A stretch of 64,000 bases of DNA from a virus: positions 64,001 through 128,000 of IMG/VR virus record IMGVR_UViG_3300045988_176782, one strand, 5' to 3'. Positions 25,036-58,817 of the stretch are shown here, one piece after another (positions within the stretch are counted from its first letter, which is position 1; every line of letters begins with the position of its first letter). The notes under the pieces were generated by a model. The model was not told the origin of the DNA, did no database searches, and was given only the letters and a program-made list of their open reading frames with translations. The translations under genes and the position numbers were made by a program.

Positions 25036-25111
25036 CGGTCATTAACTCAGTTGGTAGAGTATCGCACTTTTAATGCGAGAGTCATGCGTTCAAGTCGCAT
25101 ATGACCGACCA
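25036..25111 (+). tRNA. tRNA-Lys (anticodon TTT), encoded CCA
   Basis: Hand fold: acceptor CGGTCAT/ATGACCG, D-arm ACTC-AGTTGGTA-GAGT, anticodon arm TCGCA-CTTTTAA-TGCGA and T-arm ATGCG-TTCAAGT-CGCAT. Confidence 0.85.
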
Positions 25112-25114
25112 TTT

Positions 25115-25190
25115 CGGAATAAGGTGATGTGGTTCGTTGCAACTGGCTTATATCCAGCGATTCGGGGTTCGATTCCTCGTATTCCGACCA
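25115..25190 (+). tRNA. tRNA-Ile-like (anticodon TAT), encoded CCA
   Basis: Hand fold: acceptor CGGAATA/TATTCCG, T-arm CGGGG-TTCGATT-CCTCG and anticodon loop CTTATAT on a 4-bp stem plus an A-C mismatch. The D stem has two G-U pairs. Confidence 0.65.
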
Positions 25191-42265: not shown

Positions 42266-42279
42266 GGAGGTAAGTGAAA

Positions 42280-43881
42280 ATGGCTGAAATTAAAAAGGTA
42301 TTTAATGCGTCTTCCTTACCTATTGCGTTTTCTCGTGGTAATCCTATTCCAATTGACAAGAGTTCTGTATGGTACTCTAAAACGGATATGGAAAATTACG
42401 CTAAAACTGGCGCAACCGCTTATGTTGGTCAAATTTTAGCATTAGTTGATGACGTAAATAACACTTCCACTGCATACATTATCACCGATACTACTGGCAC
42501 TTTAAAGGAAGTAGGCAGTGCAACTATAGGTGATAATAAAACTATTGTATTAAACGAAGGTGCGCTTTCTTTAAAAAACTGGGGCGTTGAATATTACCGT
42601 TGGGTAGATGCAGTAGGAGAAGAAGGGCAAGAAGGCTATGTTGCTGGGCATCATGAAAAGCAAATCGTTGATGAAACTCACCCTTGGATTGCTGGCTTAG
42701 AGCCTAAAGCAATCGCAGGCATTGATGGCACTTTTGAAATTGCTTGGTATCAGCCTTCTACTACAACTGTTGAAGGTTTAAATTCTGCTATTGGTTCTTT
42801 GCAAACTTCTGTAAATGAAATTAATAGTGCATTAGGTAATGCTGAAACTGCAGGCACCATTCGCGGTGATATTAAAGCTAATAATGATGCTTTAACCACT
42901 AAGCTCGCTCTCGCCGGTGGCACTATGACTGGTGATATTATCCTAACCGACGGCGGTAAAGCTATTTCTGATACTGCTGTTGCTGGTTTAATCGCATCTG
43001 CTGGTCATATTAAGCGCACAATTGTAGAAGTTTTACCTGAAGCCTCTACGGCTAATGCCAATACCATTTATATGGTTAAGGATGCTACAGTTACTTCTGG
43101 CGACGCATATAATGATTATATGCTTATTGACGGGGCACTAGTCCAAGTCGGCGGCACAAGCGTTGATTTAAGTGGCTATGCTACTACAGAAGCAGTAAGT
43201 GAAGTTCAAACTGCTTTAAACAACCATAAAGCTGACACAACTCTACACATTACTAATGAGGAACGTTCTGCTTGGAATAATAAGGTTGATAAGGCAGAGG
43301 GAAAATCTCTTGTTGCAGATGAGCAAATCACCAAGTTATTTGGTCTTGCTAACATCAAAACGATTGGGAAGAACCTTTCTCTTTCTGAAGATGGTGTTCT
43401 TGCTGCATTAGCAGAACAATATACTCTTCCTGCTGCAACCGCTAGCGACCTTGGTGGTGTCAAGAAGGGTGATGGCCTTTCTATTACCACTGAAGGTGTT
43501 TTAGCCGTTCAACTTAACACAGAAAAAGCCAACGGTCTAACTGTCAGTGCGGATGGCCTTGAATTAGCTCTAGCTTCCAATACTACCGCGGGTGCAATGA
43601 GTGCTGCCGAACATGTAAAGTTAGCCAATTTGGTAGAAAATGCACAAGCAAATATCATTGAGGGTGCTTTATTAGGTACTGTTGCCGCAACAATTGATGA
43701 GAATAAGAATCTTGTTATTCCTGTTGCAACAGAAACCGCGCTTGGCCTTGTTAAAGGTAGTAAGGAAGATAATGAAATTACAATCCAAGGAAATGGCGAA
43801 ATGGAAGTTAATCGTCTTTCTGTTGGTAAGTTATTTGTTCCAGAAAATGAAGAGTTCATTATTAATGGTGGGAATGCTTAA
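42280..43881 (+). CDS. tail fibre protein, 533 aa
   Basis: AAGGAGG RBS 9 nt before the ATG (the track begins at GTG 42274). Long Ala/Thr/Gly-rich fibrous sequence. Confidence 0.6.
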   Translation: MAEIKKVFNASSLPIAFSRGNPIPIDKSSVWYSKTDMENYAKTGATAYVGQILALVDDVNNTSTAYIITDTTGTLKEVGSATIGDNKTIVLNEGALSLKNWGVEYYRWVDAVGEEGQEGYVAGHHEKQIVDETHPWIAGLEPKAIAGIDGTFEIAWYQPSTTTVEGLNSAIGSLQTSVNEINSALGNAETAGTIRGDIKANNDALTTKLALAGGTMTGDIILTDGGKAISDTAVAGLIASAGHIKRTIVEVLPEASTANANTIYMVKDATVTSGDAYNDYMLIDGALVQVGGTSVDLSGYATTEAVSEVQTALNNHKADTTLHITNEERSAWNNKVDKAEGKSLVADEQITKLFGLANIKTIGKNLSLSEDGVLAALAEQYTLPAATASDLGGVKKGDGLSITTEGVLAVQLNTEKANGLTVSADGLELALASNTTAGAMSAAEHVKLANLVENAQANIIEGALLGTVAATIDENKNLVIPVATETALGLVKGSKEDNEITIQGNGEMEVNRLSVGKLFVPENEEFIINGGNA

Positions 43882-43944
43882 TTATTAAATTAATTATTCT
43901 CTTTTATAAAATACTTGCACATACACAACGAGGTGTAATTATTT

Positions 43945-45801
43945 ATGGCTGAACACATTTTAAATACACGGATTACTCTAAAGTATGATACTTATGAAAA
44001 TTGGCAAAAATCTACTTTAGTTCTGAAAGCTGGCGAAGTTGCAATCTGCGCAGTTCCAAGTGGTGTAACTGTTGAAGGCATCGCTAAGCCACCCGCCGTT
44101 CTTCAAAAAATTGGCGATGGTGTAAATGTCTTCAAAGATTTACCCTGGCTTCAAGCCGTTGCTTCTGATGTTCATACTTGGGCAAAAGCAGCGAGCAAAC
44201 CTACCTATAAAGCAGATGAAATTACTGGCTTAGACACTTACATTACTGGTCAGATTCAAGATACTGATACTCAATATACAATTGTTAAAGGCGACAACGA
44301 TTATACATATAAGTTAATGTCTCGTGCTAAGGGCGCAGAGAATTACTCTACTGAGGTCGCTACTTTATCCATTCCCGACCCCAGCGCGGATATTAATGTT
44401 CTTAAGGCCCTAGTTGGTGATACCGCAGTCGCTACTCAAATTAGCGAGGCTATTGCTGCTTTAAAACTAAGCGATACTTATGAGCAAAAGGGTGCTGCCG
44501 CAGCTGTAAAGACTGCTTTATTAGGCGACGCCGCGGAATCTTATAATACTTTAGGTAAGTTAGAAGATGCTGTAATTGCTGCGAAGGCCTCTGCCGATGA
44601 AAAAACTACTATGGCTGCCGTAGAAGCCAAAGACTATGCCACTAAGACAGAAGCCCAAGGCTACGCTACTGCTGTAGTTGGCGCGGCTGCAGATACCGTA
44701 GATAAGGACACTGTAAAGGGTGCCAAAGCTTATGCTAAGGGCCTTAATGATGCCACCAACACTCGCGTAGAAGCTCTAGAAACTGCCATTGGCGAAGGCG
44801 GCTCTGTTGATTCTCAAATTGATGCTAAGATTGCAGAACTGGATGCGGCAGAGGTTGCTGTTGGCACAGGTGAAATTATTGAGAAGATTTCTCAAACCGA
44901 CGGTAAGATTTCTGTAAGTAAGCGCGCTTTGGCTGCAGGCGATATTCCCACAATTGAACAGAATCAAGTGAATGGCCTTGCTGGCGCTCTGGCCGCAAAA
45001 CAAGATACCTTGGCCTTCCAAAGCGACAACTATGATAAAGAAACAAATAAGGCCATCACTAAGAGCGACTTAGACACAGCTATTGCGGGCTTGACAGGCG
45101 TAACTCACTTCAAGGGCGTAGTAGAGAATCTACCTGTTTCTGCTGAAAACGGCGATATTTACATCAAGACTGATGGCACTGAGCATATTTATGTAAAGCC
45201 TGATGCCGCGACAGAAGGCCGTTTTGAAGAACTGGGCGATCAAAATTCCCATATCAAGCACGGCACTGTTGTAGATAGCGATATTGCCGCTAATGCTGCT
45301 ATTGCTCAATCCAAGATTGCCGGTCTAACCGATGCCTTAGCCGCAAAGGCTAACACTGCTGACCTTGGTACCATGGCCGTAGAAACCGCCACAAATTATA
45401 TCAAGAAAACCGAAGCTTCTGGTTATGATGATATTCTAACCACTGCTGTTGCTGGCACAACTTACGAAACCAAGAAAGATGCTACAGCTAAGCTAACCGA
45501 AGCTAAGGGCTATGTTGATACTGAGCTTGGTAAGCTAGACCTTACAGAAGTTACTGCTGGCCAAGGCACAATCATTGGAGCGATTTCTCAAACCGATGGT
45601 CTTATTAGTGTATCTACTCGTGAATTAACTGCTGATGACATCCCTGTTTTAGCACAAAGCAAAATCACTGGTTTAGAGGCCGCTTTAAATGCGAAGGCAA
45701 ATGACGCTGATTTAGCAGCAATTGCAAAGAGCGGCTCTACTGATGATTTGATTCAAGGAACAGATACCTTAGTCTTTAATTGCGGCGGTGCGAATGCGTA
45801 A
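43945..45801 (+). CDS. tail fibre with HylP-type N-terminal domain and Ala-rich coiled-coil shaft, 618 aa
   Basis: N-terminus ILNTRITLKYDTYENWQKSTLVLKAGEVA..KIGDGVNVFKDLPWL. Has repetitive A/D/T/K-rich segments. Confidence 0.65.
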   Translation: MAEHILNTRITLKYDTYENWQKSTLVLKAGEVAICAVPSGVTVEGIAKPPAVLQKIGDGVNVFKDLPWLQAVASDVHTWAKAASKPTYKADEITGLDTYITGQIQDTDTQYTIVKGDNDYTYKLMSRAKGAENYSTEVATLSIPDPSADINVLKALVGDTAVATQISEAIAALKLSDTYEQKGAAAAVKTALLGDAAESYNTLGKLEDAVIAAKASADEKTTMAAVEAKDYATKTEAQGYATAVVGAAADTVDKDTVKGAKAYAKGLNDATNTRVEALETAIGEGGSVDSQIDAKIAELDAAEVAVGTGEIIEKISQTDGKISVSKRALAAGDIPTIEQNQVNGLAGALAAKQDTLAFQSDNYDKETNKAITKSDLDTAIAGLTGVTHFKGVVENLPVSAENGDIYIKTDGTEHIYVKPDAATEGRFEELGDQNSHIKHGTVVDSDIAANAAIAQSKIAGLTDALAAKANTADLGTMAVETATNYIKKTEASGYDDILTTAVAGTTYETKKDATAKLTEAKGYVDTELGKLDLTEVTAGQGTIIGAISQTDGLISVSTRELTADDIPVLAQSKITGLEAALNAKANDADLAAIAKSGSTDDLIQGTDTLVFNCGGANA

Positions 45802-45808
45802 TTAATAT

Positions 45809-45839
45809 GGGGAGGAATTTTCCTCCCCTTATTTTTTTT
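45809..45839 (+). terminator. rho-independent terminator
   Basis: GGGGAGGA-ATTT-TCCTCCCC followed by TTATTTTTTTT. A 450-nt A+T-rich gap follows. Confidence 0.8.
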
Positions 45840-46292
45840 AAAGTGAAGACTTATTGTTTATTTTTTATTATAATTATTAAAGTTTGAATTTAATAAAATT
45901 TGACTTTTATGGAAATTTAATATACACTAATTAAAAAAGAAAATGATAGACAATTGTAAATACAAATTTGATTTAAAAAAAATTTTCCCTTTGTAATTTA
46001 ATTAATTCTTTTGAGTCACTTAATAAGAAAATTAAATTCGTTAAATTAGTGAAGGAAAATATTTTAATCTTTAAAGTCTATCTTCTCCGTCAAAAACGGC
46101 AAATAAAGGATTTATAAAAAGTTTCTTTTATAGAAGAATTTATTAACAAACAAAATGTTCTATTAGAATGATTACTTATAAAATTTAATTAATTTTGGCT
46201 AGAAGAATTCTTCTTGCCGCATATTTGAGTTGAAAAAAGATACTCAAAACAAATACTCGTTCTGAAAGTGACGAACAAAAGGGGTAATTTGT

Positions 46293-47414
46293 ATGGCAGA
46301 AAAAATATTGCAAACAAGAATTTAGTTAAAATATGATACTGAAACCAACTGGAATAAAGCTACAAATTTTATTCCTAAAGCTGGCGAAATTATTTTATAT
46401 TCTGATGGCGGCGGTACTGGTATTCCTAAAATGAAAGTTGGGGATGGAAGTACAAAAGTTGGAAATTTAAAATTTCTTAAAGGAGATGGAGAATATCTAA
46501 CCTCTGTCCCTGCTGGGACTTGGACTTGGACTAATGGTACATCTGCAGGGCCTACTGCAAAATTAACTATTGACTCTAATGCAACAACTATCGGCGCAAT
46601 TCCAGCTGCTTCTTAGAGCCAAAGTGGTATAATTACAACAACTTCTCAAGTCATTTCTGGTAATAAAGCTATGTTAGGTAATTTTTCTGTTGGTAGCAGA
46701 ACTGATGCAAATTTATATACTTTAAATATTAGTCGTAAAAGTGCTTCTGATGCATCTTCTATGCTGTTTTAGGGCTATATTAATGAAACCGCAAACAATT
46801 TTCAAATGTGCATTTATCGTTATGGAATAGATAATACCGAAGCTTGGCGTTTAATTCTAAATTTTTTAAATGGAACAATTACAAGTGATTCTACTACTCC
46901 AATTACTCTTGGTTCTGCGGACATTCCTTGGACTGCTGTTTATGCTAAGAAATTTGTTGGTGGTGAAGCCACAACTTCCGTAGCAGGTTTGATGAGTGCA
47001 GAAGATAAAACTGCCCTTGATAGTTTAAGCGCTGTTTTTGGTGGCAGTTCTTCTAGTTCAGCTGGCACAAAAGGTCTTGTTCCTGCTCCTGCAAGTGGGC
47101 AACAAAATTATGTTTTACGTGGCAATGGCAGTTGGTCTCAATCTGTTGTTTCTACTACTGCGACACTAACTGCCAATGGCTGGTCTTCTTCTACACCACA
47201 CACTCAAATCATTAGTGTTAGCGGTATTACTACGAATTCTAAGGTAGTAATTGATGTTAATTTAAGCGGACAAAGTTCTGACAATATTTCTAGTATTCTT
47301 GAAAATTGGAGTAATGTTAATGATATTCAAACTAATAGTGGCGCATTAACAGCTTATTGCTATGGTGATGTTCCTACAGTTAATTTGCCAATTAATATTA
47401 TTGATATTAAGTGA
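46293..47414 (+). CDS. tail fibre with HylP-type N-terminal domain, 373 aa with three sense TAGs
   Basis: The ATG at 46293 is in frame with track ORFs 46431..46616 and 46806..47414. TAGs lie at 46323-5, 46614-6 and about 46770. N-terminus is ILQTRI*LKYDTETNWNKA..KMKVGDGSTKVGNLKFL. Confidence 0.65.
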
Positions 47415-47423
47415 GGTTAAGTT

Positions 47424-48539
47424 ATGGGACAATGTTTAATTACACGTCGTGGTGGAAAGACATCTGTAAATACTGACTTGCCTGCTTTAGATAATAATTA
47501 TCCTCAAGATGTTATAATTTGGGGAGGAGAAGCAAATGCTTCTTTTAAAGTTGTAATTAGTCGGGCCGGAACCGACACAAATTATGCCTATCAATGGTTT
47601 AAGGATGGTGCAGTAGTTGGGACTGCTGCAACATATTCAGAAACGACACCTACTGATTATGGTTCTCACACTATACAATGCGTTATAACTACCTCTTAGG
47701 GAATTATATCTTCTCGTATTGCCACTTATATTGTAAAGAATCCTAATTTCTTATATTCATACACTGGTAATATAACTACCGGTTCCAATAATACCTTCTA
47801 TCTTACTACAAGTGGCACCTTAAATATTGCTAATTATGGTAAAAATGAAGATGGAATGTTTGATATTTTTCTCCTTGGTGGCGGTGCAGGTGGAGCTGTT
47901 ACTGGCCTTGGTGGTGGCGGTTATTATACTATTACTTCAAAGAAGAAATTAGAAAAAAACACTAATTATCAGTTTATCATCGGTGCAGGCGGCGCGGCTG
48001 GTTCTTTAACTGCGGCAGGCGGTAATGGCGGCTCAACTACGACGACTATTAGCAATATTAATGAAGGAGCGGGCGGAAAAGCTGGCAACAGAGTTGACGC
48101 ATATATTAGTTGTACTTGCCAAAGTCCTAATGGCACAGCGGGTAATATTTACGAATATAGATATGGTTATAATCAAGATACAGGTGTTTATACTATTACA
48201 AATCGCAGTTCTGTAGGGAGCGGAAGTCGGACTTTAAATTTATTATACCCATTAAAACAAGTTTCTGCTTTATATAACGGCTCAGCTATTAATGTTTATC
48301 TCGCTCCAAATAAAATTGCTTATTGGTGTTATATTACAGAGCAAAAGACCATTTCTAGTAATAATGCAACTGCTGGTGCGGGCGGTTCAATAACATATAT
48401 ATTTGGAAGTAACTCTAATCTTCAGGTTAGCGGTCCAGGCGTGTTTAACAGCAATGCTGCTTTACGTTATGGCTAGGGCGGTAATAATAATATTTTAGCA
48501 GGTAAGAATGGACTAGCCGCGATTAGGTTTAGTTCATAA
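47424..48539 (+). CDS. Ig-like plus glycine-rich domain protein, 371 aa with two sense TAGs
   Basis: Track ORFs 47424..47699 and 47856..48476 are in one frame joined by TAGs (47697-9 and 48474-6). Ends in TAA at 48537-9. Contains YQWFKDG (Ig-like) and GGGAGGAVTGLGGGG. Confidence 0.6.
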
Positions 48540-48549
48540 GGAGTAAAAA

Positions 48550-49593
48550 ATGAGTTCTTGTTTATTAGTGCAAAGTCTTAAAGAAAAGAAAATCCCGCCT
48601 ACTTTATCACCTTATCAGCCTGCTAATGCCACAGCTTGGCAAGGTGATTCGGCAACTTTTTGGGTAGAAATCGCCACTCCTGGTGTCCCTGCGGAATATA
48701 CTTATCAATGGTACCGTGATGGAGCAAAATGGTCCGGAGCGACAAAAGCAAGCGTCAGTTGGAGTAGTGCATCTATTGGAGTGCATAGTATTTATTGTAT
48801 AATATCTAATGCCGCTGGAGAAGTAACAAGTCGTACAGCCACATTGACGGTAAAGAACCCCAATATGACTTACACCTACACTGGCGGCCATGAGAAGATC
48901 GACGACGGAAGCGGCAACTGGCGCATCAAGTTCAAAAGCAGCGGCACGTTGAAATTTACCAACCTTGGCAAGTGGGACGGCAAGCTGGACGTGTTCTGCG
49001 TGGGTGGAGGTTGCGCAGGTGGTAGCGGCTACTGGGACGCAGGCAACGGCTACGGTAAAGCTGGTAGTGGTGGGTACACCACAACCCAAAAAAGTGTCCA
49101 ATCAGCCGCAAATGTCTCTTATAACATTGTTATCGGTGCAGGTGGACAAAGTGCCTTTGCGTCTGGTGGAAACACTACCGCTTTTGGTGTGGCGGCTGGT
49201 GGCGGCACGAAGCTGGGAGGTGGCAGCGGCGGCGGCGCTTATGGTAACAGAGAAGTGAACAACGGCGGCTCGGACGGCGGCAATGGCGAACCGCAGAACG
49301 CCGCCAACATCGGCATTGACCATTGGGGTTCCCCCGGCAAGGGGCAGGGAACCACGACCCGCGAGTTCGGCGAATCCACCGGCACCCTCTACGCGGGCGG
49401 CGGCGGTGCTGGCGGAAACGGCTCCGCACAGGCCCATGGCGGCGCTGGCGGTGGCGGAAATGGCGCGTGGAATGGGCACCCACAAACAAGTGGCACGGAA
49501 AACACCGGTGGCGGTGGTGGTGGCATGTACTATGGCCTAACTGTCCTGGGCAAAGGTGGTAGTGGCATAGTCGTCATACGTAATCACCGATAA
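48550..49593 (+). CDS. Ig-like plus glycine-rich domain protein, paralog with a GC-rich C-terminal half, 347 aa
   Basis: The N-half is paralogous to 47424 (YQWYRDG, TVKNPN). From about 48870 the DNA becomes markedly GC-rich and encodes GGxGG-rich sequence. Confidence 0.65.
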   Translation: MSSCLLVQSLKEKKIPPTLSPYQPANATAWQGDSATFWVEIATPGVPAEYTYQWYRDGAKWSGATKASVSWSSASIGVHSIYCIISNAAGEVTSRTATLTVKNPNMTYTYTGGHEKIDDGSGNWRIKFKSSGTLKFTNLGKWDGKLDVFCVGGGCAGGSGYWDAGNGYGKAGSGGYTTTQKSVQSAANVSYNIVIGAGGQSAFASGGNTTAFGVAAGGGTKLGGGSGGGAYGNREVNNGGSDGGNGEPQNAANIGIDHWGSPGKGQGTTTREFGESTGTLYAGGGGAGGNGSAQAHGGAGGGGNGAWNGHPQTSGTENTGGGGGGMYYGLTVLGKGGSGIVVIRNHR

Positions 49594-49617
49594 ATGGTGG
49601 TAAAGGAGTGTTTGTTT

Positions 49618-49890
49618 ATGAATTATAATTATGCTTTAATTTCTGACGGTGTTGTGCAAAATGTTATTTCGCTTTATCCAGGAAATGCGAAAGAATTTCC
49701 CACTGCAGTTCCTTTAGATGATTATCCAGTTGCAATTGGAGATACTTATGATGGAACTTATTTTTATCGTAATAATGAGCAATTAAAAACTGAAAAGCAA
49801 TGTTTTCAAGAAGAAAATACAAAACTTGTCGCGGCTTTTTCAGCTTTAGGCTTAGATTTTAATTCTATGGAGGAAACAACAAATGAGTGA
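49618..49890 (+). CDS. hypothetical protein, 90 aa
   Basis: AAAGGAG RBS, then ATG inside track ORF 49594..49890. Confidence 0.5.
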   Translation: MNYNYALISDGVVQNVISLYPGNAKEFPTAVPLDDYPVAIGDTYDGTYFYRNNEQLKTEKQCFQEENTKLVAAFSALGLDFNSMEETTNE

Positions 49891-50290
49891 TAATCGTTAT
49901 CTTGATGCTATTTTAGAATTATGCGAAGCTATGAAAAAAGCGGGTTTTTTCTTAACTGATGAGCAAGCATTAGAAGTACAAATTATCTATCCAATTTGGA
50001 CTTCTACTGGTACTTACGCAGTAGGGGATAGAGTGCGATATAATAACGCCCTTTATCGTTGCCTTATCGCTCATACCGCTCAAGAATCTTGGACTCCTGA
50101 AGCCGCAGCTAGTTTGTGGGCAAAAATCTTAACTGACCCAAGTGGTGGGATTTTACCTTGGGAGCAACCCGACAGCACTAATCCATACAAGAAGGGTGAT
50201 AAGGTTACTCATAATGGTAAAACTTGGATAAGCACAATTGATAATAATGTATGGGAACCAGGCGTTTATGGTTGGGAAGAAGTTCAATAA
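49883..50290 (+). CDS. CBM5/12-like (chitin-binding type 3-like) carbohydrate-binding repeat protein, 135 aa
   Basis: Two repeats: YAVGDRVRYNNALYRCLIAHTAQESWTPEAAASLW and YKKGDKVTHNGKTWISTIDNNVWEPGVYGW. Confidence 0.55.
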   Translation: MSDNRYLDAILELCEAMKKAGFFLTDEQALEVQIIYPIWTSTGTYAVGDRVRYNNALYRCLIAHTAQESWTPEAAASLWAKILTDPSGGILPWEQPDSTNPYKKGDKVTHNGKTWISTIDNNVWEPGVYGWEEVQ

Positions 50291-50374
50291 ATTTGATTTT
50301 TTATAAAATTTTCTTTATAATATAATTAAAGAAAAATGAAATTTATTAGCATTATTTACTTATTTTATTAAGTC

Positions 50375-50411
50375 AAACGCCGCAGCGTCTTGTTCATTCT
50401 GCGGCGTTTTG
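50375..50411 (+). terminator. hairpin terminator
   Basis: AAACGCCGCAG..CTGCGGCGTTT followed by TT. A second small hairpin lies at about 50440-50465. Confidence 0.55.
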
Positions 50412-50485
50412 GCATCTTTATTCTGAAAAGATGAATAAAGAAATTACCAATCGTCTGAAAAGACGACGATTAGGAGGTAATAATT

Positions 50486-52681
50486 ATGGCAAAACAACTT
50501 AACGCTCGTGTTCAAACTAAACGAGACACAGAACAAAATTGGAATTAGGCAATTAACTTTATTCCTAAAGATGGCGAAATTATTATTTATAAAGCTGATA
50601 CAACCGCGGAAGAGCTTCAAACTTTTTATGAAGCATATTTGGCGGAAGTTGAAGCACTAAAATTAATTACCAATACTTCCTCAACCGAATATCAAGAACA
50701 ATCTGTAAAAGTTTCTGAAGCTCTCGCCACCTATAATAATCGCTCTACACGAATTGTGCCGCGTTTTAAAGTAGGAAATGGAGAAAAATATTTAAAAGAT
50801 TTACCTTTTGTAAATGACCCATTTGTAATTAAGGAAGAAGGTAAAGGTCTTTCTGAATGTGATTATGATAAGCGTGCTCACGATATTATTGAGAACTTAA
50901 AGCAATTTGAAGATAATAATACCGGTGAAGTTTAGTATACTGACACAAAATATACTAACGGCGTCGGATTGGGGCTATTAGAGGATACAATTCCTTCAAC
51001 TTCTCAAACCCATACTTTCTACAATACTGGTATTGTTTCTATTCAAGAAAGCGCCATTAATGGTAACATTTCTGTAGCTCGTGGTAATTCCAGCACCGAT
51101 ACCACTGTAAGTGATATTGCAATTCACGGTTTAACTCAAACTGCTTATACTTTACCTGAAACTTTTGCTACAGCAAAAGCGGGCGAGCGCGCAATGACGG
51201 CATTGCAAAATGTCGCTACTCCTTTTGAACCAGTAAGCGTAAAAGATTTAACAATTCAAAAGTTGTTTGATTTAGGTTTCTTAAATACATCTTCTATTCC
51301 TGATTCTGCCGCATATTTACTTTCAGACGAAGGAAAAGCTAAAAAAATAGAAGAAATTCCAAGCTCCGAAAACGGTAGTATAAGTTATTTAATTTTTCTT
51401 GGCCTTTATCCATATGATGTCGCCGCACAAACAATGCTTCGTGGTACAGTTAATTTACAAAAAATGGATGAGGATGACAATCTAATTAACCTCTATGCGC
51501 CTGTAATTGGATTGGGCAAAATGGCTTATATTGATGAAGTTAATGCTTCCAATATTAACTTGGATACTTTGCCTATTATGACAGGTGTTAGGAAAGTTGA
51601 AACTACTGATGAAGATGGCAACATTACCGAAACAACTTATCTTTCTGGGCATAAAGGTTTGGTTCCGACTCCAACAGAAAACGATTATGGCAAAGTTCTA
51701 TTTAGCGATGGCTCTTGGCGACCAATTACAGATATTGCGATTAACATTGGTGATATTCCTTCTGGTTTAGCAACCGATAATGAAGGTAAAATTTATAATA
51801 ATGGTATATTAAATTTAAGTAGTGAAGAAAATATTATAAACTTTACTCAACTTCAATTAGATGAAGCTACTCAAAAATATCAATTAGTTTCCTATCAACT
51901 TGAAATTCCCGCAGCGGTATCTTGGACTTCAACACTTACGAGTGGAGAACAAATTGGCACTTTAACTATTAATAACGCTGAAAATATTTTATATGCTCCG
52001 GTTGCATCCGACAGAGTGGCAAAAGCAGGAGATACAATGACCGGACGATTAATTTCTCCTGCGATAGAAATTCGCAAAGACGCTTGGCCATAGCTTCTAT
52101 TAAGCAATGCTTCAGGTGGTCCTCGTGGAATGATGTATGTAGCAACCAGTGATGGTAGTGTGGGTAATTTATATCTTAGAGCATATTCTTCTGACACAGA
52201 ATATTCTCAAGCTTATTTAACAACTTCTGGAACTTTTTCCGCACCAAGTGTTGAAGGCGCAGTCTTTAACGATTACGCAGAATACCGTGCTTTAAAAGAC
52301 CCAATTGAATCCTACGAACCAGGTTATTGTATGACCTGCAATAGAGATGGAAAACTTTTCCGCACTTCTTCTCGTATGCAACATTGTGAAGGCATTACCT
52401 CTGATACTTTTGGTTTCTCTATTGGCCGCACAGATGAAGCTACTGTTCCTCTTGCAGTTGCAGGTCGCGTACTAGTATATACTTCTGAAGACCCCTCTAC
52501 TTACTATACTGGTCAAGCTGTTTGTGCTAGTAGGGGTGGCCGCGTTTCTAAAATGACAGATTCTGAAATTGCTCAAAATCCTGACCGTATTGTTGGAATA
52601 GTAAGTGAAGTTCCTACATATGAAACTTGGGGAACAAATAATGTTAAAGTTAATGGTAGAATTTGGATTACAGTAAAATAA
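50486..52681 (+). CDS. tail fibre with HylP-type N-terminal domain and conserved C-terminal domain, 731 aa with three sense TAGs
   Basis: The ATG at 50486 (GGAGG RBS) is in frame with track ORFs 50639.., 50969.. and 52130... TAGs lie at 50546-8, 50933-5 and 52091-3. The C-terminal 140 aa or so is homologous to that of 52731..54188. Confidence 0.65.
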
Positions 52682-52730
52682 ATTTGCCTATAAACAAAAA
52701 TTATTGTAAAATAATTTTGGAGGATGAAAT

Positions 52731-54188
52731 ATGAAACAAGTAAATATTATTGTAAAGTCTTCTGTGCAAGAATAGGAAAAATTTATTGGAACTTATCCAG
52801 AAAAAAACCTATTAACAATTGATGCAGAAGGACAAATTATTCAAGATGATGTAATTACTCACGGTATAAAAATTGGTGATGGCGAAACCAAATGGGATGA
52901 TTTACCTTTCTTGAAGTTGCCGCCTGATATAGCGAATGATTGGAAAGTTTTAGCAGAAAGCGCGACCAATGGCCAACTTGTGACCTTACCTGATTTGAAT
53001 TTTGCATATTTATTAATTGACGCAGAAAAACTAGATAACGCACAGTATACTGAAATTGTAAATCAAATTGCTTCTCGTAATATTGGTTTATATTTAGCCG
53101 CGGCAGAATCAGAAAAATCATTATACCCTGATGGAAGTCAAATTCAAAATTATGCTCTCACAATCAACACAGACGAAGATAAACCATTCATAACTCAAGA
53201 CCCAAATGGTGCAACTGCCACAAATAGTATAGTAGATAGGTTTATTTTTAATACTTCAAATGAATCCAAGTATAATAAAATTGAAGTGAAATTAAAAGAT
53301 AGTGAAGCGCAAGAAAAAATTGAACAGCTTAAAGCTACGGTAGATGATAAATTTACTACTTTTTCTGAGCAAACTAAAAAAGATATTGAACAAGTAAAAA
53401 AAGATATTAAAGAATCCACCTATATTTTTGGTAGCAATAACATCCCCGAAGGAACCACAAGTGGCCTAATTCCTTTTCCTGAAGTAGAAAAACGAACAAA
53501 AGATTACTTCCTTTCTGGCGCAGGGACTTGGGAACAAATCATTCTTACCGCTGATAAAGTAAAATACACCACTCCGACTGGTAGCCAAACATATGTTAAA
53601 GATGTGTTAGATGATTTATTGAGCGGTGCTAGTCTAAGTTTTGCTCAAGGTAGCGCGACAGACCGTCAGGTATTTATTGTTGGCGCGACACAAGAAGGTT
53701 TGAATAATAAAAAAACTACATTAAAATATAGTCCAAGTGTGTATCTTGACTGTAAGGATAATGTACTATATGGCGGCGCTTGGAATGATATTGCTGAATT
53801 TAGGGAGTCTTTTGATTCTTATGTGGCAGGAAACTGTGTATATGAAACTGCACGAGGCAAATTGATGATTTCTGATAAGCGTATGATTCCAAATAGTTAT
53901 ATTGTATCTGACACTTATGGTTATGCTTTGGGTGAGAAAGATATTGATACAGTTCCTGTTACTATTGCCGGTAGAGTTTTGGCTTATTATTTAGAAGATA
54001 AAAATGAACTAAAAATTGGTGATGCTGTATGCAGCGGTCCAAATGGTGCAGTTTGTAAGATGAAGAAATGGGAAAAAATTTTACATCCTGAATGTATTAT
54101 TGGCTATGTAAGTGAAATTCCTCAATATGAGATTTGGGGCCAACATAATACTTCTGTGCGCAATCGTATTTGGATTAAGGTGAAGTAA
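52731..54188 (+). CDS. tail fibre/spike protein with shared C-terminal domain, 485 aa with one sense TAG
   Basis: GGAGG RBS. TAG at 52773-5. Contains IKIGDGETKWDDLPFL. C-terminus NDIAEFRE..TVPVTIAGRVLAY..IIGYVSEIP..RIWIKVK parallels 50486's NDYAEYRA..TVPLAVAGRVLVY..IVGIVSEVP..RIWITVK. Confidence 0.6.
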
Positions 54189-54189
54189 T

Positions 54190-54882
54190 ATGGTAGAAAA
54201 AATTACAGCTTCTTGGTTTAATAGAATTATTGATGCCATTAAGCGTTTAAAGAATTTAGGATTTGCTTTTTCTACAGAAGGAGTCCCAAATAAAATTACC
54301 ATAAATTCAGATGGCACAACAGGAAAACTTTATACTCCTTCTGACTTTAGTGCGATTAATGCAATAATTCAACGAATGTCAACAGATGAATACTTACAGC
54401 AAACAAATAACGCTTCTTATCCTGCACAACAAATTTATTATAATACTGTTTCTGTCGGTAAGCGTGGGCAAAGACCGTTATTAGATTGGAAAAATCAATT
54501 AGATAGAACGGTTGATTCTTGGCAATATATTACTTGCTATCACGGAACTGCAAAAACGAATGGTGTAAATAGCGTTGCGTGCCAGCATGGGGCGAATAGT
54601 AATGGTGATAATACGAATGGTTATTGCCAAAGAGGATTAACTCCTTGTGACCATGGAACTAATCATGTTTGTAATACTAATTATAGTAGTCAAGGTAATA
54701 AAGGTTGGCATACTAAAACTTGCTCCAACGCCACCGTAAAAGATGGAAAAGGCAGCAACACCAATGGTATGTATTCCCCTAACGGCACAAATAGTAACGG
54801 TACTTTTGCTAACACTTGTCCTCACGGAGATTGTCAGCAAGGTATCGATATTAACATTCGTTATAAAACAACACAAGGATAA
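54190..54882 (+). CDS. structural-module protein with Cys/His/Asn-rich C-terminal repeat region (candidate radical-SAM substrate), 230 aa
   Basis: The C-terminal 110 aa or so has 8 Cys, four C-x-H-G motifs (CYHGT, CQHGA, CDHGT, CPHGD) and many N-(S/T)-N-G repeats. Confidence 0.6.
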   Translation: MVEKITASWFNRIIDAIKRLKNLGFAFSTEGVPNKITINSDGTTGKLYTPSDFSAINAIIQRMSTDEYLQQTNNASYPAQQIYYNTVSVGKRGQRPLLDWKNQLDRTVDSWQYITCYHGTAKTNGVNSVACQHGANSNGDNTNGYCQRGLTPCDHGTNHVCNTNYSSQGNKGWHTKTCSNATVKDGKGSNTNGMYSPNGTNSNGTFANTCPHGDCQQGIDINIRYKTTQG

Positions 54883-54891
54883 AAGAAAAGA

Positions 54892-56232
54892 ATGAATAAA
54901 AATTTAAAGCATACTGTCTTAACTTTATTTCCTTCCGCAGTTTGTAATTTAAACTGTACATACTGCAACATTAGTAAAAATAAGGCTCTAATTGAAATTG
55001 ATAAAGAATTGAAAGATTTCTTTAACGACCCAGATTATATAATGCAACGAGTGCATAAGTATTTTGAACCTTGTGCTCTTACCACATTAGAAACCTGGGG
55101 CGGCGAACCTTTTCTCCATATGGATAGAATATATAAGGTATTGCCGCGACTTGTGGAAGATTATCCATATTTACAGAATTTCTTCAGTTCTACAAATTTT
55201 TCTTTTTCTACTTGGATAGAACAATTTTTTGGCCTGATGCACCAATTTAAGCAATGGCCAGACCGTCAATTTAATTACAAACTCCAAATTTCTTGTGATG
55301 GCCCAACTGAATTAAACGATTTGGGGCGCGGAAAAGGCACAACTTTAAAGTGCTTGGAAAATTATGCCAGATTGGTTGAGTCTTTAGAAAAGAGATTGCC
55401 TGCTAATATCAATCTTTCTATTGTTCCTAAGCCTACTTTAAATTTAGAAACAGTTCGTTTATTAAATACAAAAGAAAAAATTATAGAATATTACCAATTC
55501 TTTGAAGATTGTTTTATTAATTTAGTTAATAAGTTGGAATTTAATAATGTTCAAGCTTACACAAACACTCCGAATATGGGCGTTCCTTGTCCAGCAACAA
55601 AAGAGGACGGGTTATATTTTGCTAAGTTTGCGAAAAATTGTGCAGAAGTAAGCAAACACGCAAAGAAATACTTCAAATATTATACTAATGTGCGACCTTT
55701 TTCCATATATCAAAAACAAACGAAAAACCTAACTTTCTATCAATCCTGTATTGGTTGTGGTATGGGATATTCTAATATTGGACTTTTGCCGCAAGACAAA
55801 ATTTCAGTATGTAATGAAGGATTTGTTCAAACTGTAAAACAATATAATGAACTACGCTCTCAAGAGCAAGAAAGCGGCACAATTGAAAAGAAAACTCGTC
55901 AATCAAAAAATCAACATCATCTATGCTATAGTGATGATGAATATGAGAAGTTTGAAGAACAAATGTGTAATTTCTGTTATACTGCAAATACATCAGTTTT
56001 GGTTGGTTTATGCAATCAAATCACTCTTTTGGCTTTAAGCGGCCAGATTGATAAACAATATATACAGCAATCTAATGCTCTTCACGCCGCACAAGTTTTA
56101 GCAGGAGAATACTTTTGTTTAAAAGATAATTATGACATTACAGGATCTTTTTCTCTTGTTCCTGTAGGGTTAATTCGTTTATTATTAAATGGTGCTTTGC
56201 CATATTTGGAGAATAATGATGAAAACATTTAA
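54892..56232 (+). CDS. radical SAM enzyme with additional Cys clusters, 446 aa
   Basis: CNLNCTYC (CX3CX2C) near the N-terminus, a GGEPFL motif, and downstream clusters SCIGCG..VCNEG and CNFC. Confidence 0.75.
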   Translation: MNKNLKHTVLTLFPSAVCNLNCTYCNISKNKALIEIDKELKDFFNDPDYIMQRVHKYFEPCALTTLETWGGEPFLHMDRIYKVLPRLVEDYPYLQNFFSSTNFSFSTWIEQFFGLMHQFKQWPDRQFNYKLQISCDGPTELNDLGRGKGTTLKCLENYARLVESLEKRLPANINLSIVPKPTLNLETVRLLNTKEKIIEYYQFFEDCFINLVNKLEFNNVQAYTNTPNMGVPCPATKEDGLYFAKFAKNCAEVSKHAKKYFKYYTNVRPFSIYQKQTKNLTFYQSCIGCGMGYSNIGLLPQDKISVCNEGFVQTVKQYNELRSQEQESGTIEKKTRQSKNQHHLCYSDDEYEKFEEQMCNFCYTANTSVLVGLCNQITLLALSGQIDKQYIQQSNALHAAQVLAGEYFCLKDNYDITGSFSLVPVGLIRLLLNGALPYLENNDENI

Positions 56233-57616
56233 AGAAGAAAATAACGATTTTTTAAAGTTTTTGTTAAATGAAAGGTTTTTTAAGAATTGGAAGAAACCTT
56301 CAAATAATGGCAAAGACTTACATTCTATTTCTCAAATTGAGTTTTATATTACTAACCAGTGTAATCAACATTGTGAGTATTGTTATTTATATAATAATTA
56401 CAATATCTATCCAAAAGAAGCCACAGAAGCAAAAACAATTCTTAATAATCTAACTATGGTTTTTAATTGGCTTATTGAAAATAATTATTATATTCAAACT
56501 ATTGATTATTTTTCTGGCGAAATTTGGCATACTCAATTAGGATTGGACATTTTGGATTTGACCTTTAAAGCTTTACAAAATGGTTTGCAAGTTAAACGAA
56601 TAATGATTCCTACAAATGGCTCATTTATTATGAATGATGCGGTTAAACAGAAAATTCAAAACTATATCAATGCTTTCCAAGACCTTGGGACAAGTCTTCA
56701 ACTGTCTTTTTCCATTGATGGTAAAGTAATTGACAACTTGAATCGTCCACGTAATGACAGTTCTAAATTATATACTGACGAATTTTATAATAAAGTATTT
56801 GATTTTGCTTATCATAATGATTTTTTCTTCCATCCAATGGTTGCTGCTTATTCTATTGAAAAATGGAAAGAAAACTTCTATTGGTGGAAAGAAATGTGCC
56901 AAAAATATAATTGGTCAACTCATTATCGTGTAATGATGTTGGAAGTGCGCAATGATGACTGGACGGAAGAAAAGATTAAAACTTATTGTGATTTTCTTAC
57001 ATTTTTAATGGATGATTTTAGAGAAGAAAATCCTCAATATGCTTCAATAGAAAATTTTTCTGAATTTATCTTTGGTAAATATATAACACTAGAAGAAAAC
57101 TATACTTACCTTCCTTGGGTACTTGCGCTAACTTCCGATGTTTTTTCTTGTACAATACCGTGTCAATTATGTATTCGTTTAGGCGATTTAGCTTTGGCAC
57201 CTTGCCATAGAACAGCATACGATAAATTTATCTATGGCTATTTTCAAACTCAAAATGGTCGCATCGTAGACATTAAGGAAAATAATTTTTATCTTGCTGA
57301 ACGATTTCTTTATATGAGCAATATTTACGCTACTCCTCATTGCGATACTTGTGTGTATAATAAGTTCTGTATAAAGGGATGCGCAGGTTCACAGTATGAA
57401 AATACTGGAGATTTATTCTTCCCTATTCCCTCTGTATGCAAATTAGAAAAAGCAAAAATTAATACAGCAATTAACTATTATCAAAAGAATGGCATAATTG
57501 ATTACTACAAAAATCTTCCTATTGACCATTTTATGTATTCAAGTGCCTCAAGACTTTTAGGAGAAATTTATGCTATTCAAAAAGAAACCGAAACTTATTC
57601 AATCTCTAACTCTTGA
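56216..57616 (+). CDS. radical SAM / SPASM-domain enzyme, 466 aa
   Basis: CNQHCEYC (CX3CX2C) and a C-terminal CDTCVYNKFCIKGC, which fits the SPASM CX2CX5CX3C signature exactly. GGAGA RBS, then ATG inside track ORF 56189..57616. Confidence 0.8.
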   Translation: MMKTFKEENNDFLKFLLNERFFKNWKKPSNNGKDLHSISQIEFYITNQCNQHCEYCYLYNNYNIYPKEATEAKTILNNLTMVFNWLIENNYYIQTIDYFSGEIWHTQLGLDILDLTFKALQNGLQVKRIMIPTNGSFIMNDAVKQKIQNYINAFQDLGTSLQLSFSIDGKVIDNLNRPRNDSSKLYTDEFYNKVFDFAYHNDFFFHPMVAAYSIEKWKENFYWWKEMCQKYNWSTHYRVMMLEVRNDDWTEEKIKTYCDFLTFLMDDFREENPQYASIENFSEFIFGKYITLEENYTYLPWVLALTSDVFSCTIPCQLCIRLGDLALAPCHRTAYDKFIYGYFQTQNGRIVDIKENNFYLAERFLYMSNIYATPHCDTCVYNKFCIKGCAGSQYENTGDLFFPIPSVCKLEKAKINTAINYYQKNGIIDYYKNLPIDHFMYSSASRLLGEIYAIQKETETYSISNS

Positions 57617-57809
57617 ACAATCTTGTCAAGGACAATTAACTACTACGGCGGAAAAAGTAGATATATATAGTGATGATACTGTTGTTCGTTATTATACATA
57701 TTCTATTCGTCATTTTGATAATATTGATGGCATTACGCCGCTTAATTATGTAGGACAAAAAATTTATAATCAGTTAACTGGGTATAAAGAGGAATTGACG
57801 AATTCCTAA
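57570..57809 (+). CDS. small protein, 79 aa, translationally coupled to the SPASM enzyme
   Basis: AGGAGA RBS 6 nt before the ATG. Overlaps the rSAM 3' end by 47 nt. Last gene before the terminator. Confidence 0.55.
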   Translation: MLFKKKPKLIQSLTLEQSCQGQLTTTAEKVDIYSDDTVVRYYTYSIRHFDNIDGITPLNYVGQKIYNQLTGYKEELTNS

Positions 57810-57970
57810 AATCAAAATAGATGAGACGATATTATAGCAGTTAAGTTTATTATCCAATTCACGGGAAAGCGCTTAACAGTCGCAGAAGAAAAAATAAAAC
57901 TTCTCTTCTAGTGTCGGCTCAATTGATTTATCTACGGCGATTTTAACAGGTGGTAATTCCATTACGAATT

Positions 57971-58001
57971 AAGAGGACAATTTTGTCCTCTTATTTTTTT
58001 T
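57971..58001 (+). terminator. rho-independent terminator of the late tail-fibre operon
   Basis: AAGAGGAC-AATTT-GTCCTCTT followed by ATTTTTTTT. Overlaps the next promoter (TTTACA, 17 nt, TGTATAAT). Confidence 0.8.
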
Positions 58002-58054
58002 ACAAAAAAGAAAATTTCGTGTATAATACAATTAACAAAGAAAGGAGCAAAGAT

Positions 58055-58369
58055 ATGAGACAAAAACATATAATTGAATTAGAACACGAAGATTTTCAAT
58101 ATTTATTAGAACATTGCGCAGAAAAGCTCTGGATATCTAAATCAAATAAAACATATTATCTTGTTATTCGCGGCTCTGAGCTGTGTCCGCATTGTCATCA
58201 AAGGACAGGTTATGGTGTTGTAGGAGAATATAATAAAATTGTTTGTCCGCAATGTGGTTTTGAGAGAACATTAATTGTATTAGATGATGGGAATGCAAAC
58301 GTAAATTTAGACCACATAAAGGCAAGTTCTTTGCTTATTTTCAAAGACAAAGGAGTACGTCATGAATGA
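58055..58369 (+). CDS. zinc-ribbon protein, 104 aa
   Basis: AAAGGAG RBS. HEDFQYLLEHC then CPHC..CPQCG. Internal ATG of track ORF 57950..58369. Confidence 0.55.
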   Translation: MRQKHIIELEHEDFQYLLEHCAEKLWISKSNKTYYLVIRGSELCPHCHQRTGYGVVGEYNKIVCPQCGFERTLIVLDDGNANVNLDHIKASSLLIFKDKGVRHE

Positions 58370-58817
58370 TTACCATATTACATTAAAACACGAAGATTTT
58401 ATGTATCTTCTTAAACATTGTACTTATCATCCAAAAGACAACTTGCAGCCTATAGTCGTCCTTGATAGTAATATTTGTCCAAATTGTGGGACTGAAGATG
58501 CCTGGCATTATGATAATAAGTCATTAACTGTCTCTTGCGCTTCTTGTGGGCATAACCGTACTAATATGTATCTTTCTGGAAGTGCGGTTCCCAGTAAAGA
58601 GGGCGGTGGCGGTGAAGTTGGATGGATGATTCCATCGGTAATTTTTCTTGATGAAAACGATGAAAAATATTTTAAGAAAATTTGTAAAAAAGCACGAAGG
58701 GAAGTATTTGTATGGAAAATCAAAAACCAACCCTCATTGTTATGGTCGGAGTTCCGGGAAGTGGTAAAGATTACCAAATTGAAAATAGTGAATTTCTTTA
58801 CGCAGATGGAGAAGTAA
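58362..58817 (+). CDS. zinc-ribbon protein, paralog of 58055..58369, 151 aa
   Basis: HEDFMYLLKHC then CPNCG..CASCG. Its 3' end overlaps the next gene by about 105 nt. Confidence 0.5.
   Translation: MNDYHITLKHEDFMYLLKHCTYHPKDNLQPIVVLDSNICPNCGTEDAWHYDNKSLTVSCASCGHNRTNMYLSGSAVPSKEGGGGEVGWMIPSVIFLDENDEKYFKKICKKARREVFVWKIKNQPSLLWSEFREVVKITKLKIVNFFTQMEK

Follow-up and report, generated by a model that had tools for sequence, protein, structure and literature searches.

Maturases of the radical S-adenosylmethionine (SAM) type with a SPASM domain are known almost entirely from bacterial clusters for peptides that are made on ribosomes and then undergo post-translational modification (RiPPs), which make small peptides, and the maturation of a whole protein by a pair of radical SAM enzymes was shown only in 2026, for the HXS system. 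In this study, we analyzed a window of 64,000 nucleotides from the genome of a large gut phage (positions 64,001 to 128,000 of the IMG/VR record IMGVR_UViG_3300045988_176782), in which the gene of a repeat protein of 230 amino acids (aa), p230, is followed by two adjacent radical SAM genes, rSAM1 and rSAM2, and by a small gene, p79. With moderate confidence, we read these genes as a phage-borne four-gene protein-maturation cassette that cross-links p230, with a role at the virion surface as the preferred one. The link between p230 and the two enzymes is strongly supported by comparisons of related loci; that p230 is their substrate, how it is cross-linked, what p79 contributes and what the product finally does are inferred.

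HXS is a bacterial, defensive system, found to 99.7% in Pseudomonadota, whose components are HxsA (214 aa, with five HxS repeats), a pair of radical SAM enzymes (HxsB and HxsC) and a small protein, HxsD, that binds HxsC. During maturation, one repeat gains 8 Da and the N-terminus is processed, and the mature HxsA protein prevents the entry of phage DNA (Li et al., Nat Commun 2026, PMC13128918). Similarly, the phage cassette has four genes; in both, a full-length protein with repeats (short tandem ones in HXS) is encoded with a pair of adjacent radical SAM enzymes and one small partner protein. The HXS product stays a protein, as that of the cassette probably does. HXS is the closest described system and shows that two radical SAM enzymes and a partner can mature a repeat protein of full length. 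In contrast, the gene order is D-B-C-A in HXS and S-R1-R2-D in the cassette (S, repeat protein; R1 and R2, enzymes; D, small partner), HXS is carried by bacteria whereas the cassette resides in phages that probably infect Clostridia, and the cassette proteins combine a novel helical N-terminal domain with long Asn/Gly/Ser/Thr-rich cores that contain Cys and aromatic residues. The two systems share no family-level homology: rSAM2 matches HxsB (TIGR03978) with 22.8 bits against a cut-off of 370 and in the SPASM region only, rSAM1 has no match to HxsC (TIGR03977) at E ≤ 0.1, and p230 and p79 have no NCBIfam match to HxsA or HxsD. Furthermore, no Pfam peptidoglycan-binding domain was found in p230 or the p79 family, and H-S-S or H-S-Q repeats occur in some relatives of p230 but not in p230 itself.

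Other described systems resemble parts of the cassette. In both structure and sequence, rSAM2 is matched best by the ranthipeptide (SCIFF) thioether maturase CteB, and the two systems share a seven-Cys SPASM motif and Cys-rich repeated cores. However, CteB and PapB systems use one enzyme with an N-terminal RiPP recognition element (RRE) and precursors of ~45–50 aa, whereas the cassette has two enzymes, no RRE, and substrates of 120–560 aa, some of them nearly Cys-free; the ranthipeptide/SCIFF hidden Markov models (HMMs) score the cassette enzymes at 27 bits against 340 and 28 against 425. Triceptide precursors carry many short aromatic-x-x repeats in Gly/Asn/Ser-rich contexts, and many cassette cores, with W-S-N/Q, F/Y/W-N-S or H-S-S repeats, recall the triceptide and cyclophane radical SAM systems (XyeB, GrrM/OscB, YhhB, FxsB-type), whereas p230 is richer in Cys/His than in aromatic repeats. 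Finally, the SPASM enzyme anSME, the second-best structural neighbor of rSAM2, targets a side chain within a full-length protein instead of a small peptide; it works as one enzyme on one Cys/Ser in the sulfatase motif C/S-x-P-x-R, and the cassette contains neither a sulfatase nor such a motif. Literature searches, which did not cover all journals, returned no description of phage radical SAM RiPPs, of YcaO with phages, or of recoding together with radical SAM enzymes that matches the cassette. This agrees with a preliminary description of the locus, made from the sequence of the window, which was aware of no phage structural protein matured by a dedicated radical SAM pair. We regard the cassette as a new phage-specific form of radical SAM-matured repeat protein, common in uncultured large phages.

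Linkage of the repeat protein to the enzyme pair

To compare loci, 77 were retrieved from IMG/VR with an rSAM2 profile, and in essentially every complete one rSAM1 lies directly upstream of rSAM2. The gene order of repeat protein, rSAM1, rSAM2 and small open reading frame (ORF) is kept in ~80 viral loci, down to ~30% enzyme identity, and recurs in 19 loci from metagenome-assembled genomes (MAGs) or other genomes. In most loci, the C-terminal part of the ORF before rSAM1 consists to 45–69% of Asn, Gly, Ser and Thr. A content of at least 45% of these four residues in the last 80 aa was found for 63% of 81 ORFs upstream of rSAM1; for 971 further ORFs from these loci, the share was 1.2%. Conversely, loci that were seeded with the repeat protein contained the radical SAM pair in all eight cases (four viral loci, L107–L110, and four metagenome contigs, L111–L114), in the order substrate, ~455 aa, ~465 aa and ~103–131 aa. 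The preliminary description had tied the repeat protein to the enzyme pair and had proposed examining whether p230 homologues co-occur with radical SAM genes; the association is found from both directions.

A word-indexed homology search had given 16 relatives of p230, and this small number argued at first against a dedicated substrate, whereas the locus contexts show the opposite. Such searches under-recover the substrate family (16 and 12 matches), whereas an exhaustive profile search returned 188 representative clusters at E ≤ 1e-3, of which 130 at E ≤ 1e-10. For the large majority of the full-length matches (55–422 aa long), the profile aligns from the first few residues on. The substrate is therefore a stand-alone family rather than a domain of a fiber or capsid protein. 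The enzyme side is also large, with more than 549 clusters homologous to rSAM2 at 40–66% identity, many on contigs of 100–360 kb. Collectively, what is new is a near phage-exclusive family, counting over 549 clusters of enzymes and 188 of substrates, that joins a conserved handle to an extraordinarily diverse repeat core, is often present twice in a genome and commonly has YcaO or glycosyltransferase tailoring genes.

Within p230, all eight Cys lie in residues 116–230 and none in residues 1–115. As the preliminary description had noticed, the C-terminal part carries C-x-H-G and N-[ST]-N-G motifs; there are four of the former (at C116, C131, C153 and C210) and four of the latter, and in shuffles of the C-terminal 120 residues, 0.06 and 0.07 copies are expected, respectively, and four were reached in 0 of 20,000 shuffles. 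As a defining motif, however, C-x-H-G does not hold beyond one lineage: in P0016, which is 50% identical to p230, it is replaced by the C-x-x-G variants CSYG, CSKG, CKKG and CSDG, and C153 varies even among close relatives. Over its full length, the N-terminal domain of p230 can be aligned with 12 distant substrates, of which p230 is a divergent relative (15–27% identity), and neither D66 nor C116, the first Cys of the core, varies among them. In contrast, the core diverges faster than the N-terminal domain in most close relatives (for P0005, 74% against 96.5% identity). In the closest subfamily, the protein ends in a conserved tail, T-x-[IV]-D-[IL]-x-[NC], which in p230 reads GIDINIRYKTTQG. 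An AlphaFold2 model from a 16-sequence alignment (overall pLDDT 46) predicts helices at residues 7–22, 50–64 and 96–110 of the N-terminal domain, with a pLDDT of ~63–79 for residues 11–70 and ~47–65 for the third helix; residues 115–230 are predicted to be disordered (pLDDT 22–37). No PHROG, Pfam or PDB match was found for p230, and the profile of its N-terminal domain gave only insignificant matches in Pfam and PDB, such as flagellin helices (E ~0.3).

Across the family, the cores are tandem repeats of very unlike units, among them CNNSSHSQGGHTHGTNSNA, CSITCSNKCTAQACGRT, xSNGx in dozens of copies, WSQGANGNG, GTHSS, CTHSxHSSKS, CGNGNHGQG and CCNTNSTNxN, and distant lineages repeat either F/Y/W-N-S or units with much Tyr, Asp, Ser and Gly. 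All cores contain closely spaced Cys and/or aromatic or His residues, although some are nearly Cys-free (0–2 Cys); they are 60–460 aa long. A conserved N-terminal domain and a variable core beside modifying enzymes are the general marks of a RiPP precursor, and the hypervariable yet patterned core behind a conserved domain follows the leader/core logic of RiPPs. At the DNA level, the p230 gene contains no tandem repeats. Variation of the core by a diversity-generating retroelement (DGR) was considered and rejected, as the window contains no second copy of the core DNA and no ORF with the YxDD motif of a reverse transcriptase. In the distant locus L101 (4534–5361), the parts of the upstream ORF appear to be reversed, with F/S/N repeats first and a segment like the N-terminal domain at the C-terminus; this ORF may be a permuted substrate or two fused ORFs.

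Outside uncultured phages, the cassette is rare. It is absent from 50,697 GenBank phage records searched by blastn with the 6-kb region and by tblastn with the enzymes, and the 19 loci named above are the only ones among 185,579 species-representative genomes, nearly all of them MAG contigs, several phage-sized, binned to Oscillospiraceae, Lachnospiraceae or other Clostridia. The cassette is almost confined to large phages, many of which use TAG as a sense codon, and these phages probably infect gut Clostridia. Of 81 loci, 41 have in-frame TAG within the substrate gene, which must, for this reason, be translated in the recoded state. Moreover, several genomes carry two divergent cassettes (L024 and L050, L025 and L051, L020 and L060, and the phage of the window with L032). 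The second cassette of the last pair lies ~36 kb away in IMGVR_UViG_3300045988_173030, a near-identical genome of 168 kb; its rSAM2 is 52% identical, its core is different, and all four of its genes contain in-frame TAG, unlike the copy in the window. A complete cassette in the standard code is present on a 429-kb contig of a cultured isolate, Clostridiales Family XIII bacterium PM5-7 (L103), where it adjoins a large terminase gene and a KDO8P-synthase-like gene. This contig could be an experimentally accessible prophage or phage, and a version without TAG recoding from a cultured Clostridiales isolate could make the cassette experimentally tractable.

The enzymes and their putative small partner

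Both enzymes have the properties of radical SAM proteins, namely an invariant CxxxCxxC motif, WGGEP (a SAM-binding motif of the GGE type) in rSAM1, and a model of rSAM2 that superposes on radical SAM structures. In rSAM2, the SAM-cluster motif CNQHCEYC is invariant in 29 homologues and is accompanied by the SPASM signature CDTCVYNKFCIKGC. The seven SPASM Cys that are invariant in these homologues (C312, C330, C376, C379, C385, C389 and C408, numbered from ATG 56216) fit the SPASM pattern of C..C, then Cx2Cx5Cx3C, then C, and a seven-Cys SPASM motif binds two auxiliary 4Fe-4S clusters. The SPASM HMM TIGR04085 gives rSAM2 20.5 bits, below its cut-off of 27, and the rSAM2 family profile matches only the SPASM region of CteB among solved structures (E = 2.8e-6). 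The AlphaFold2 model of rSAM2 (pLDDT 90, pTM 0.90), in which the N-terminal extension is a single helix, has full-length Foldseek matches to CteB (E = 9e-12), anSME (5e-10) and TigE (2e-8). The TM-score with CteB is 0.54–0.59, and the best structural neighbors overall reach 0.52–0.59 at 16% identity. In contrast, viperin, MoaA and DesII match the radical SAM core of the model only (E 1e-5 to 1e-3). Based on its conserved Cys and predicted fold, rSAM2 is a true SPASM enzyme, nearest to the peptide- and protein-modifying CteB, anSME and TigE. The preliminary description had recognized the SPASM signature and had counted a confident assignment to a nucleoside or cofactor family as evidence against peptide modification; the signature stands, and the enzymes do not assign to a family of that kind, whose folds match rSAM2 in the core only. 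Further matches of the rSAM2 model in BFVD are unannotated SPASM-type radical SAM proteins of other phages, several per genome, including the uncultured gut Myoviridae ctkfK18 (four) and ctYA416 (two), the Campylobacter phages CP20, F379 and CP21, and Erwinia phage Derbicus.

For rSAM1, the motifs CNLNCTYC (residues 18–25) and WGGEP (69–73) are conserved in 98–100% of 66 homologues, and C18, C22, C25, W69, E72, Q132, S134, D136, R146, C289, C307 and C409 are invariant. The motifs reported earlier are thus present, whereas the "extra Cys clusters" reduce to three invariant Cys outside the SAM cluster, C289, C307 and C409. This falls short of the seven Cys of a SPASM domain and excludes rSAM1 as a SPASM enzyme; three additional Cys are compatible with one auxiliary cluster, in a twitch-like arrangement. 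rSAM1 matches PHROG 1802 (E = 1.8e-13). The two enzymes were also considered as recent paralogues, which was rejected on a BLASTP E value of 0.087.

Known families in Pfam, NCBIfam and PHROGs are reached by both enzymes only below threshold. Radical_SAM of Pfam (PF04055) matches rSAM1 at E = 8e-6 and rSAM2 at E = 4e-3, both below the gathering score. NCBIfam matches of the two enzymes comprise PapB, SCIFF, QhpD, GrrM/OscB, YhhB, XyeB, DynA and HxsB; the RiPP-maturase matches score 12–31 bits against cut-offs of 180–855, and weak as they are, they are mostly RiPP maturases. The top NCBIfam match of rSAM1 is PapB, below threshold, followed by weak matches to GrrM/OscB, YhhB, XyeB, AmcB and DynA (E 6e-5 to 5e-2), far below their cut-offs.

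These scores under every curated family threshold leave room for a coincidental linkage, in which the enzyme pair would modify a nucleic acid, a cofactor or another protein, and p230 would be a metal-binding or low-complexity structural neighbor. Phages do carry radical SAM enzymes for nucleoside pathways, and the Cys/His motifs of p230 could bind metal. However, the two-way co-occurrence spans very deep divergence and varied genomic contexts, Cys and His are not conserved family-wide, so that a metal site is not a common feature, and the fold neighbors of rSAM2 modify peptides or proteins. We consider a coincidence very unlikely.

An ORF that overlaps the end of rSAM2, like p79, was found in nearly all loci. 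BLAST places p79 in a cluster of 18 members drawn from across the closest subfamily, and its family shares a DG...Y...L..YGQ motif with an invariant Tyr at lengths of 73–230 aa. The family alignment shows no repeats, no conserved Cys and no hypervariable segment, and the family has no Pfam or PDB match. The preliminary description had offered p79 as the precursor or as a PqqD-like recognition partner. Its small size, its coupling to rSAM2 and its place immediately 3' of the enzymes would suit a precursor peptide in place of p230, but p79 is conserved like a folded protein, and HxsD of HXS is a comparable partner that is not a substrate; we regard p79 as precursor as extremely improbable. A PqqD-like partner is likewise not indicated, with no PqqD or RRE signal in p79 or its family. 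Judged from its sequence family, p79 behaves as a conserved partner protein.

Proposed chemistry and possible role of the repeat protein

In the mechanism that we propose, p230 would be made ribosomally in two parts, a small helical N-terminal domain and then a disordered Asn/Gly/Ser/Thr-rich core, and the N-terminal domain would serve as a recognition handle, like the leader of a RiPP. Aided by p79, rSAM1, with one auxiliary cluster, and rSAM2, a SPASM enzyme with two, would abstract hydrogen atoms from the core, which should be accessible to the enzymes because it is predicted to be disordered. The enzymes would most likely install intramolecular links, that is, Cys thioethers, aromatic/His C–C links of the cyclophane type, or both, and may do two different jobs. 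By analogy, the Cys-rich cores and the CteB-like fold suggest thioethers, and the aromatic/His-rich cores and the weak matches to cyclophane families suggest C–C links.

In some lineages, further modifications would be added by YcaO proteins and glycosyltransferases. YcaO genes flank the cassette in L004, L087, L091 and L112, and glycosyltransferase genes lie beside it in L087 (GT2 and GT8) and in L111 and L112 (GT2), while L103 has a radical SAM–GT2 fusion (Table 1). The commonest Pfam families among 77 downstream neighbors are YcaO (four proteins), GT2 (three), GT1 (two) and GT1_4 (two). The recurrence of such peptide- or protein-modifying neighbors speaks for the maturation reading. N-x-[ST] is enriched in the cores, in a statistic that is inflated by repeats and related sequences. 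These features hint that the repeat protein may be glycosylated in some lineages.

YcaO and glycosyltransferase tailoring also recalls thiopeptide, glycocin or similar clusters, and the product might be a diffusible RiPP, the N-terminal domain being a leader cut off by a host or distant protease and the core being freed at lysis as a bacteriocin-like or signaling peptide. A conserved leader before a hypervariable core and enzymes that resemble SPASM RiPP maturases would fit, and S8 or Clp peptidases do occur nearby, though only sporadically. In the loci compared, however, the cassette has no conserved peptidase or transporter. Moreover, the cores are far longer than typical RiPP cores, the N-terminal domain of ~110 aa exceeds most leaders, and the conserved tail T-x-IDI-x-N suggests an intact protein with structured ends. 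We consider a diffusible peptide improbable; owing to the missing peptidase and exporter and the conserved protein ends, the product probably stays a protein.

As regards the place of this protein, we prefer a protease-resistant, fast-diversifying surface module that would act on or with the virion and would be made late in the phage of the window, from the tail-fiber transcription unit. A virion role is favored because of the position in the fiber operon, the structural neighbors elsewhere and a hypervariability of the receptor-binding type. With respect to neighbors, the lineage of the window has the cassette inside the fiber gene array. Among 74 upstream neighbors from 49 non-redundant loci, most are unannotated; within the top 25 PHROGs, all those with a functional annotation are tail, baseplate, head or other virion structural families, endolysins or peptidases. 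A late or virion-linked use in the lineage of the window is further supported by the fiber-like gene behind the cassette in relatives, by its remnant in the window, and by the in-frame TAG of many substrate genes elsewhere, which calls for translation in the recoded state. This PHROG scan is more informative than a BLAST comparison with the fiber proteins of the window. More specifically, the modified protein may be an accessory fiber or decoration of the virion, whose core forms a protease-proof surface that binds a receptor or mucus; we put this forward tentatively and hold it as doubtful. From the gene context, a virion role of p230 in the phage of the window is plausible, and it is the weakest step of the proposal.

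Several observations weigh against the proposal. The virion role is argued from gene position only, and the BLAST comparison finds fiber neighbors in just 9 of 80 loci, mostly in the lineage of the window; many loci have no structural neighbors. In L085, the cassette lies between large unannotated proteins and an endolysin, in L004 among small genes with RtcB further downstream, and in L103 near the large terminase. In addition, the N-terminal domain is unlike any known virion protein or fiber anchor in Pfam or PDB, and the structure model of p230 is of low confidence. On the side of the chemistry, all family-level HMM matches in Pfam and NCBIfam score far short of the curated cut-offs, no solved structure was detected as a relative of rSAM1, and an RRE or PqqD domain is absent from rSAM1, rSAM2, p79 and the p79 family according to Pfam and the rSAM2 model. 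Finally, the cores, which are rich in Cys, in Trp, in Tyr/Asp or in Phe/Asn/Ser, are too unlike for a single chemistry to be likely.

The many loci among non-structural genes would also suit an HXS-like effector, which would act in the infected cell and keep competing phages from bringing in or replicating their DNA (superinfection exclusion). By analogy, both systems have one set of parts, including a SPASM enzyme as one of the adjacent pair, and hypervariability and two copies per genome fit an arms race. Against this stand the family scores given above (HxsB far below its cut-off; no HxsA, HxsC or HxsD matches), PADLOC results limited to weak viperin-type matches to the radical SAM core, and cores that are neutral or acidic and Asn/Ser/Gly-rich rather than basic HxS repeats. 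Likewise, the protein lacks a peptidoglycan-binding domain and a signal peptide, the probable hosts are Gram-positive Clostridia without a periplasm, and expression from a late fiber operon would come late for exclusion. An effector of this kind is in our view unlikely.

If the virion reading is true, p230 would be the first structural protein of a phage with radical SAM maturases dedicated to it, and the cassette would provide a new route to host-range diversity that needs no DGR. Should the chemistry be confirmed, the cassette would hold new enzymology, with two divergent radical SAM families and a new partner protein, a natural library of cross-linked repeat scaffolds, and a new phage-encoded, post-translationally diversified protein for host recognition or for competition between phages in the gut.

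Locus layout, genetic code and other features of the window

The four ORFs reported earlier were all found on the plus strand, co-oriented and overlapping or closely spaced (Table 1). The p230 gene starts 1 nt past the stop codon of the last fiber gene, with AAGGTGA upstream, and a consensus scan found no terminator-like site or comparable element at this junction. rSAM2 probably starts at ATG 56216 or 56219, behind GGAG at 56208–56211, and not at 56189; with the start at ATG 56216, it overlaps rSAM1 by 17 nt. The first 47 nt of p79 overlap the end of rSAM2, and a GGAG ribosome-binding site precedes p79 at a distance of 6 nt, in line with the translational coupling described earlier. Downstream of p79, a terminator-like hairpin and a promoter-like site follow. 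Based on this arrangement, the cassette and the fiber genes would form one transcription unit that is closed by the hairpin, and the view of the four genes as the last of a tail-fiber operon holds. Between p79 and the hairpin lies a frameshifted remnant of a fiber-like gene, which matches the C-termini of genes in L001 (13644–14321) and L086 (2339–3178); there, these genes are intact, lie directly 3' of the cassette, and have N-termini that resemble the 485-aa fiber.

Table 1. Coordinates of the cassette and adjoining features in the window, and of accessory genes in other loci (positions within the named locus)
Feature	Position	Strand	Description
Last tail-fiber gene	52731..54188	+	485 aa, one in-frame TAG; ends 1 nt before p230
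p230	54190..54882	+	230 aa; repeat protein of the cassette, putative substrate (S)
p230 N-terminal domain, aa 1-115	54190..54534	+	conserved; putative leader-like recognition/handle domain
p230 repeat core, aa 116-215	54535..54834	+	hypervariable; 8 Cys, 6 His, CxHG and N[ST]NG
p230 C-terminal tail, QQGIDINIRYKTTQG and stop	54835..54882	+	conserved in closest subfamily
rSAM1	54892..56232	+	446 aa; radical SAM, one probable auxiliary Fe-S cluster
rSAM2	56216..57616	+	radical SAM/SPASM; 466 aa from ATG 56216; translation-table-11 ORF from 56189
p79	57570..57809	+	putative small conserved partner (D); translationally coupled to rSAM2
Fiber-like gene remnant, frameshifted	57867..57969	+	tblastn: KRLTVAEEKIK and GSIDLSTAILTGGNSITN*
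Terminator-like hairpin, 10 bp and T-run	57970..57993	+	consensus match only
Best promoter-like site, 3' of hairpin	57999-58027		consensus match only
Accessory genes, L087	11740-15338		
Accessory genes, L112	2039-4960		
Accessory genes, L111	8619-9644		
Accessory genes, L103	1901-3970		
Accessory genes, L004	9671-11470		

A portal gene (PHROG 2739) lies in the window, as does a long tail-fiber gene array at 41006–54188. The array holds at least six fiber-like genes, several of which have an N-terminal R.DT..NW...N.IP..GE motif that matches the N-termini of PHROG tail-fiber and hyaluronidase families, and it suggests many alternative receptor-binding proteins. The 485-aa fiber gene call agrees with the gene calls of the relatives L001 and L002, and its N-terminal motif is common to neighboring genes that match PHROG tail-fiber families. 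In the fibers at 50486–52681 and 52731–54188, the C-terminal ~130 aa are paralogous (...GRVLxYxxED...IVGxVSEVPxYExWG...NGRIWIxVK); this shared domain has no Pfam or PHROG match and could be an intramolecular-chaperone or receptor-binding module.

Under translation table 11, the ORFs of the window are fragmented, and read-through of TAG fuses the fragments into genes that match the calls of close relatives. For example, the gene at 50486–52681 encodes 731 aa with three in-frame TAG. Among 79 retained genes, 52 end in TAA, 27 in TGA and none in TAG. Because read-through fuses ORFs and no gene ends in TAG, we conclude that the phage reads TAG as a sense codon. The fiber ORFs that the preliminary description placed before p230 are therefore present, but they are longer than their table-11 versions, since TAG is sense. 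The four cassette genes of the window have no in-frame TAG, and no suppressor tRNA was found within the window. TAG-containing genes also occur at 4692–6248(−) and 11689–13293(−), and many genes of the window contain one to five in-frame TAG.

Three further features lie in the window. A tRNA cluster at 24678–25190 (+) encodes Leu-CAA, Lys-TTT and Ile-TAT. A group I catalytic intron at 10913–11156 (−), a full-length match to Rfam RF00028 with 93.6 bits, is located between the packaging-region ORFs 9591–10676(−) and 11069–13293(−) and probably interrupts a terminase-like gene. Finally, two adjacent small paralogues at 57950–58817, just 3' of the cassette terminator, start with ...HEDF.YLL.HC... 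and carry zinc-ribbon motifs with weak Pfam Zn-ribbon matches.

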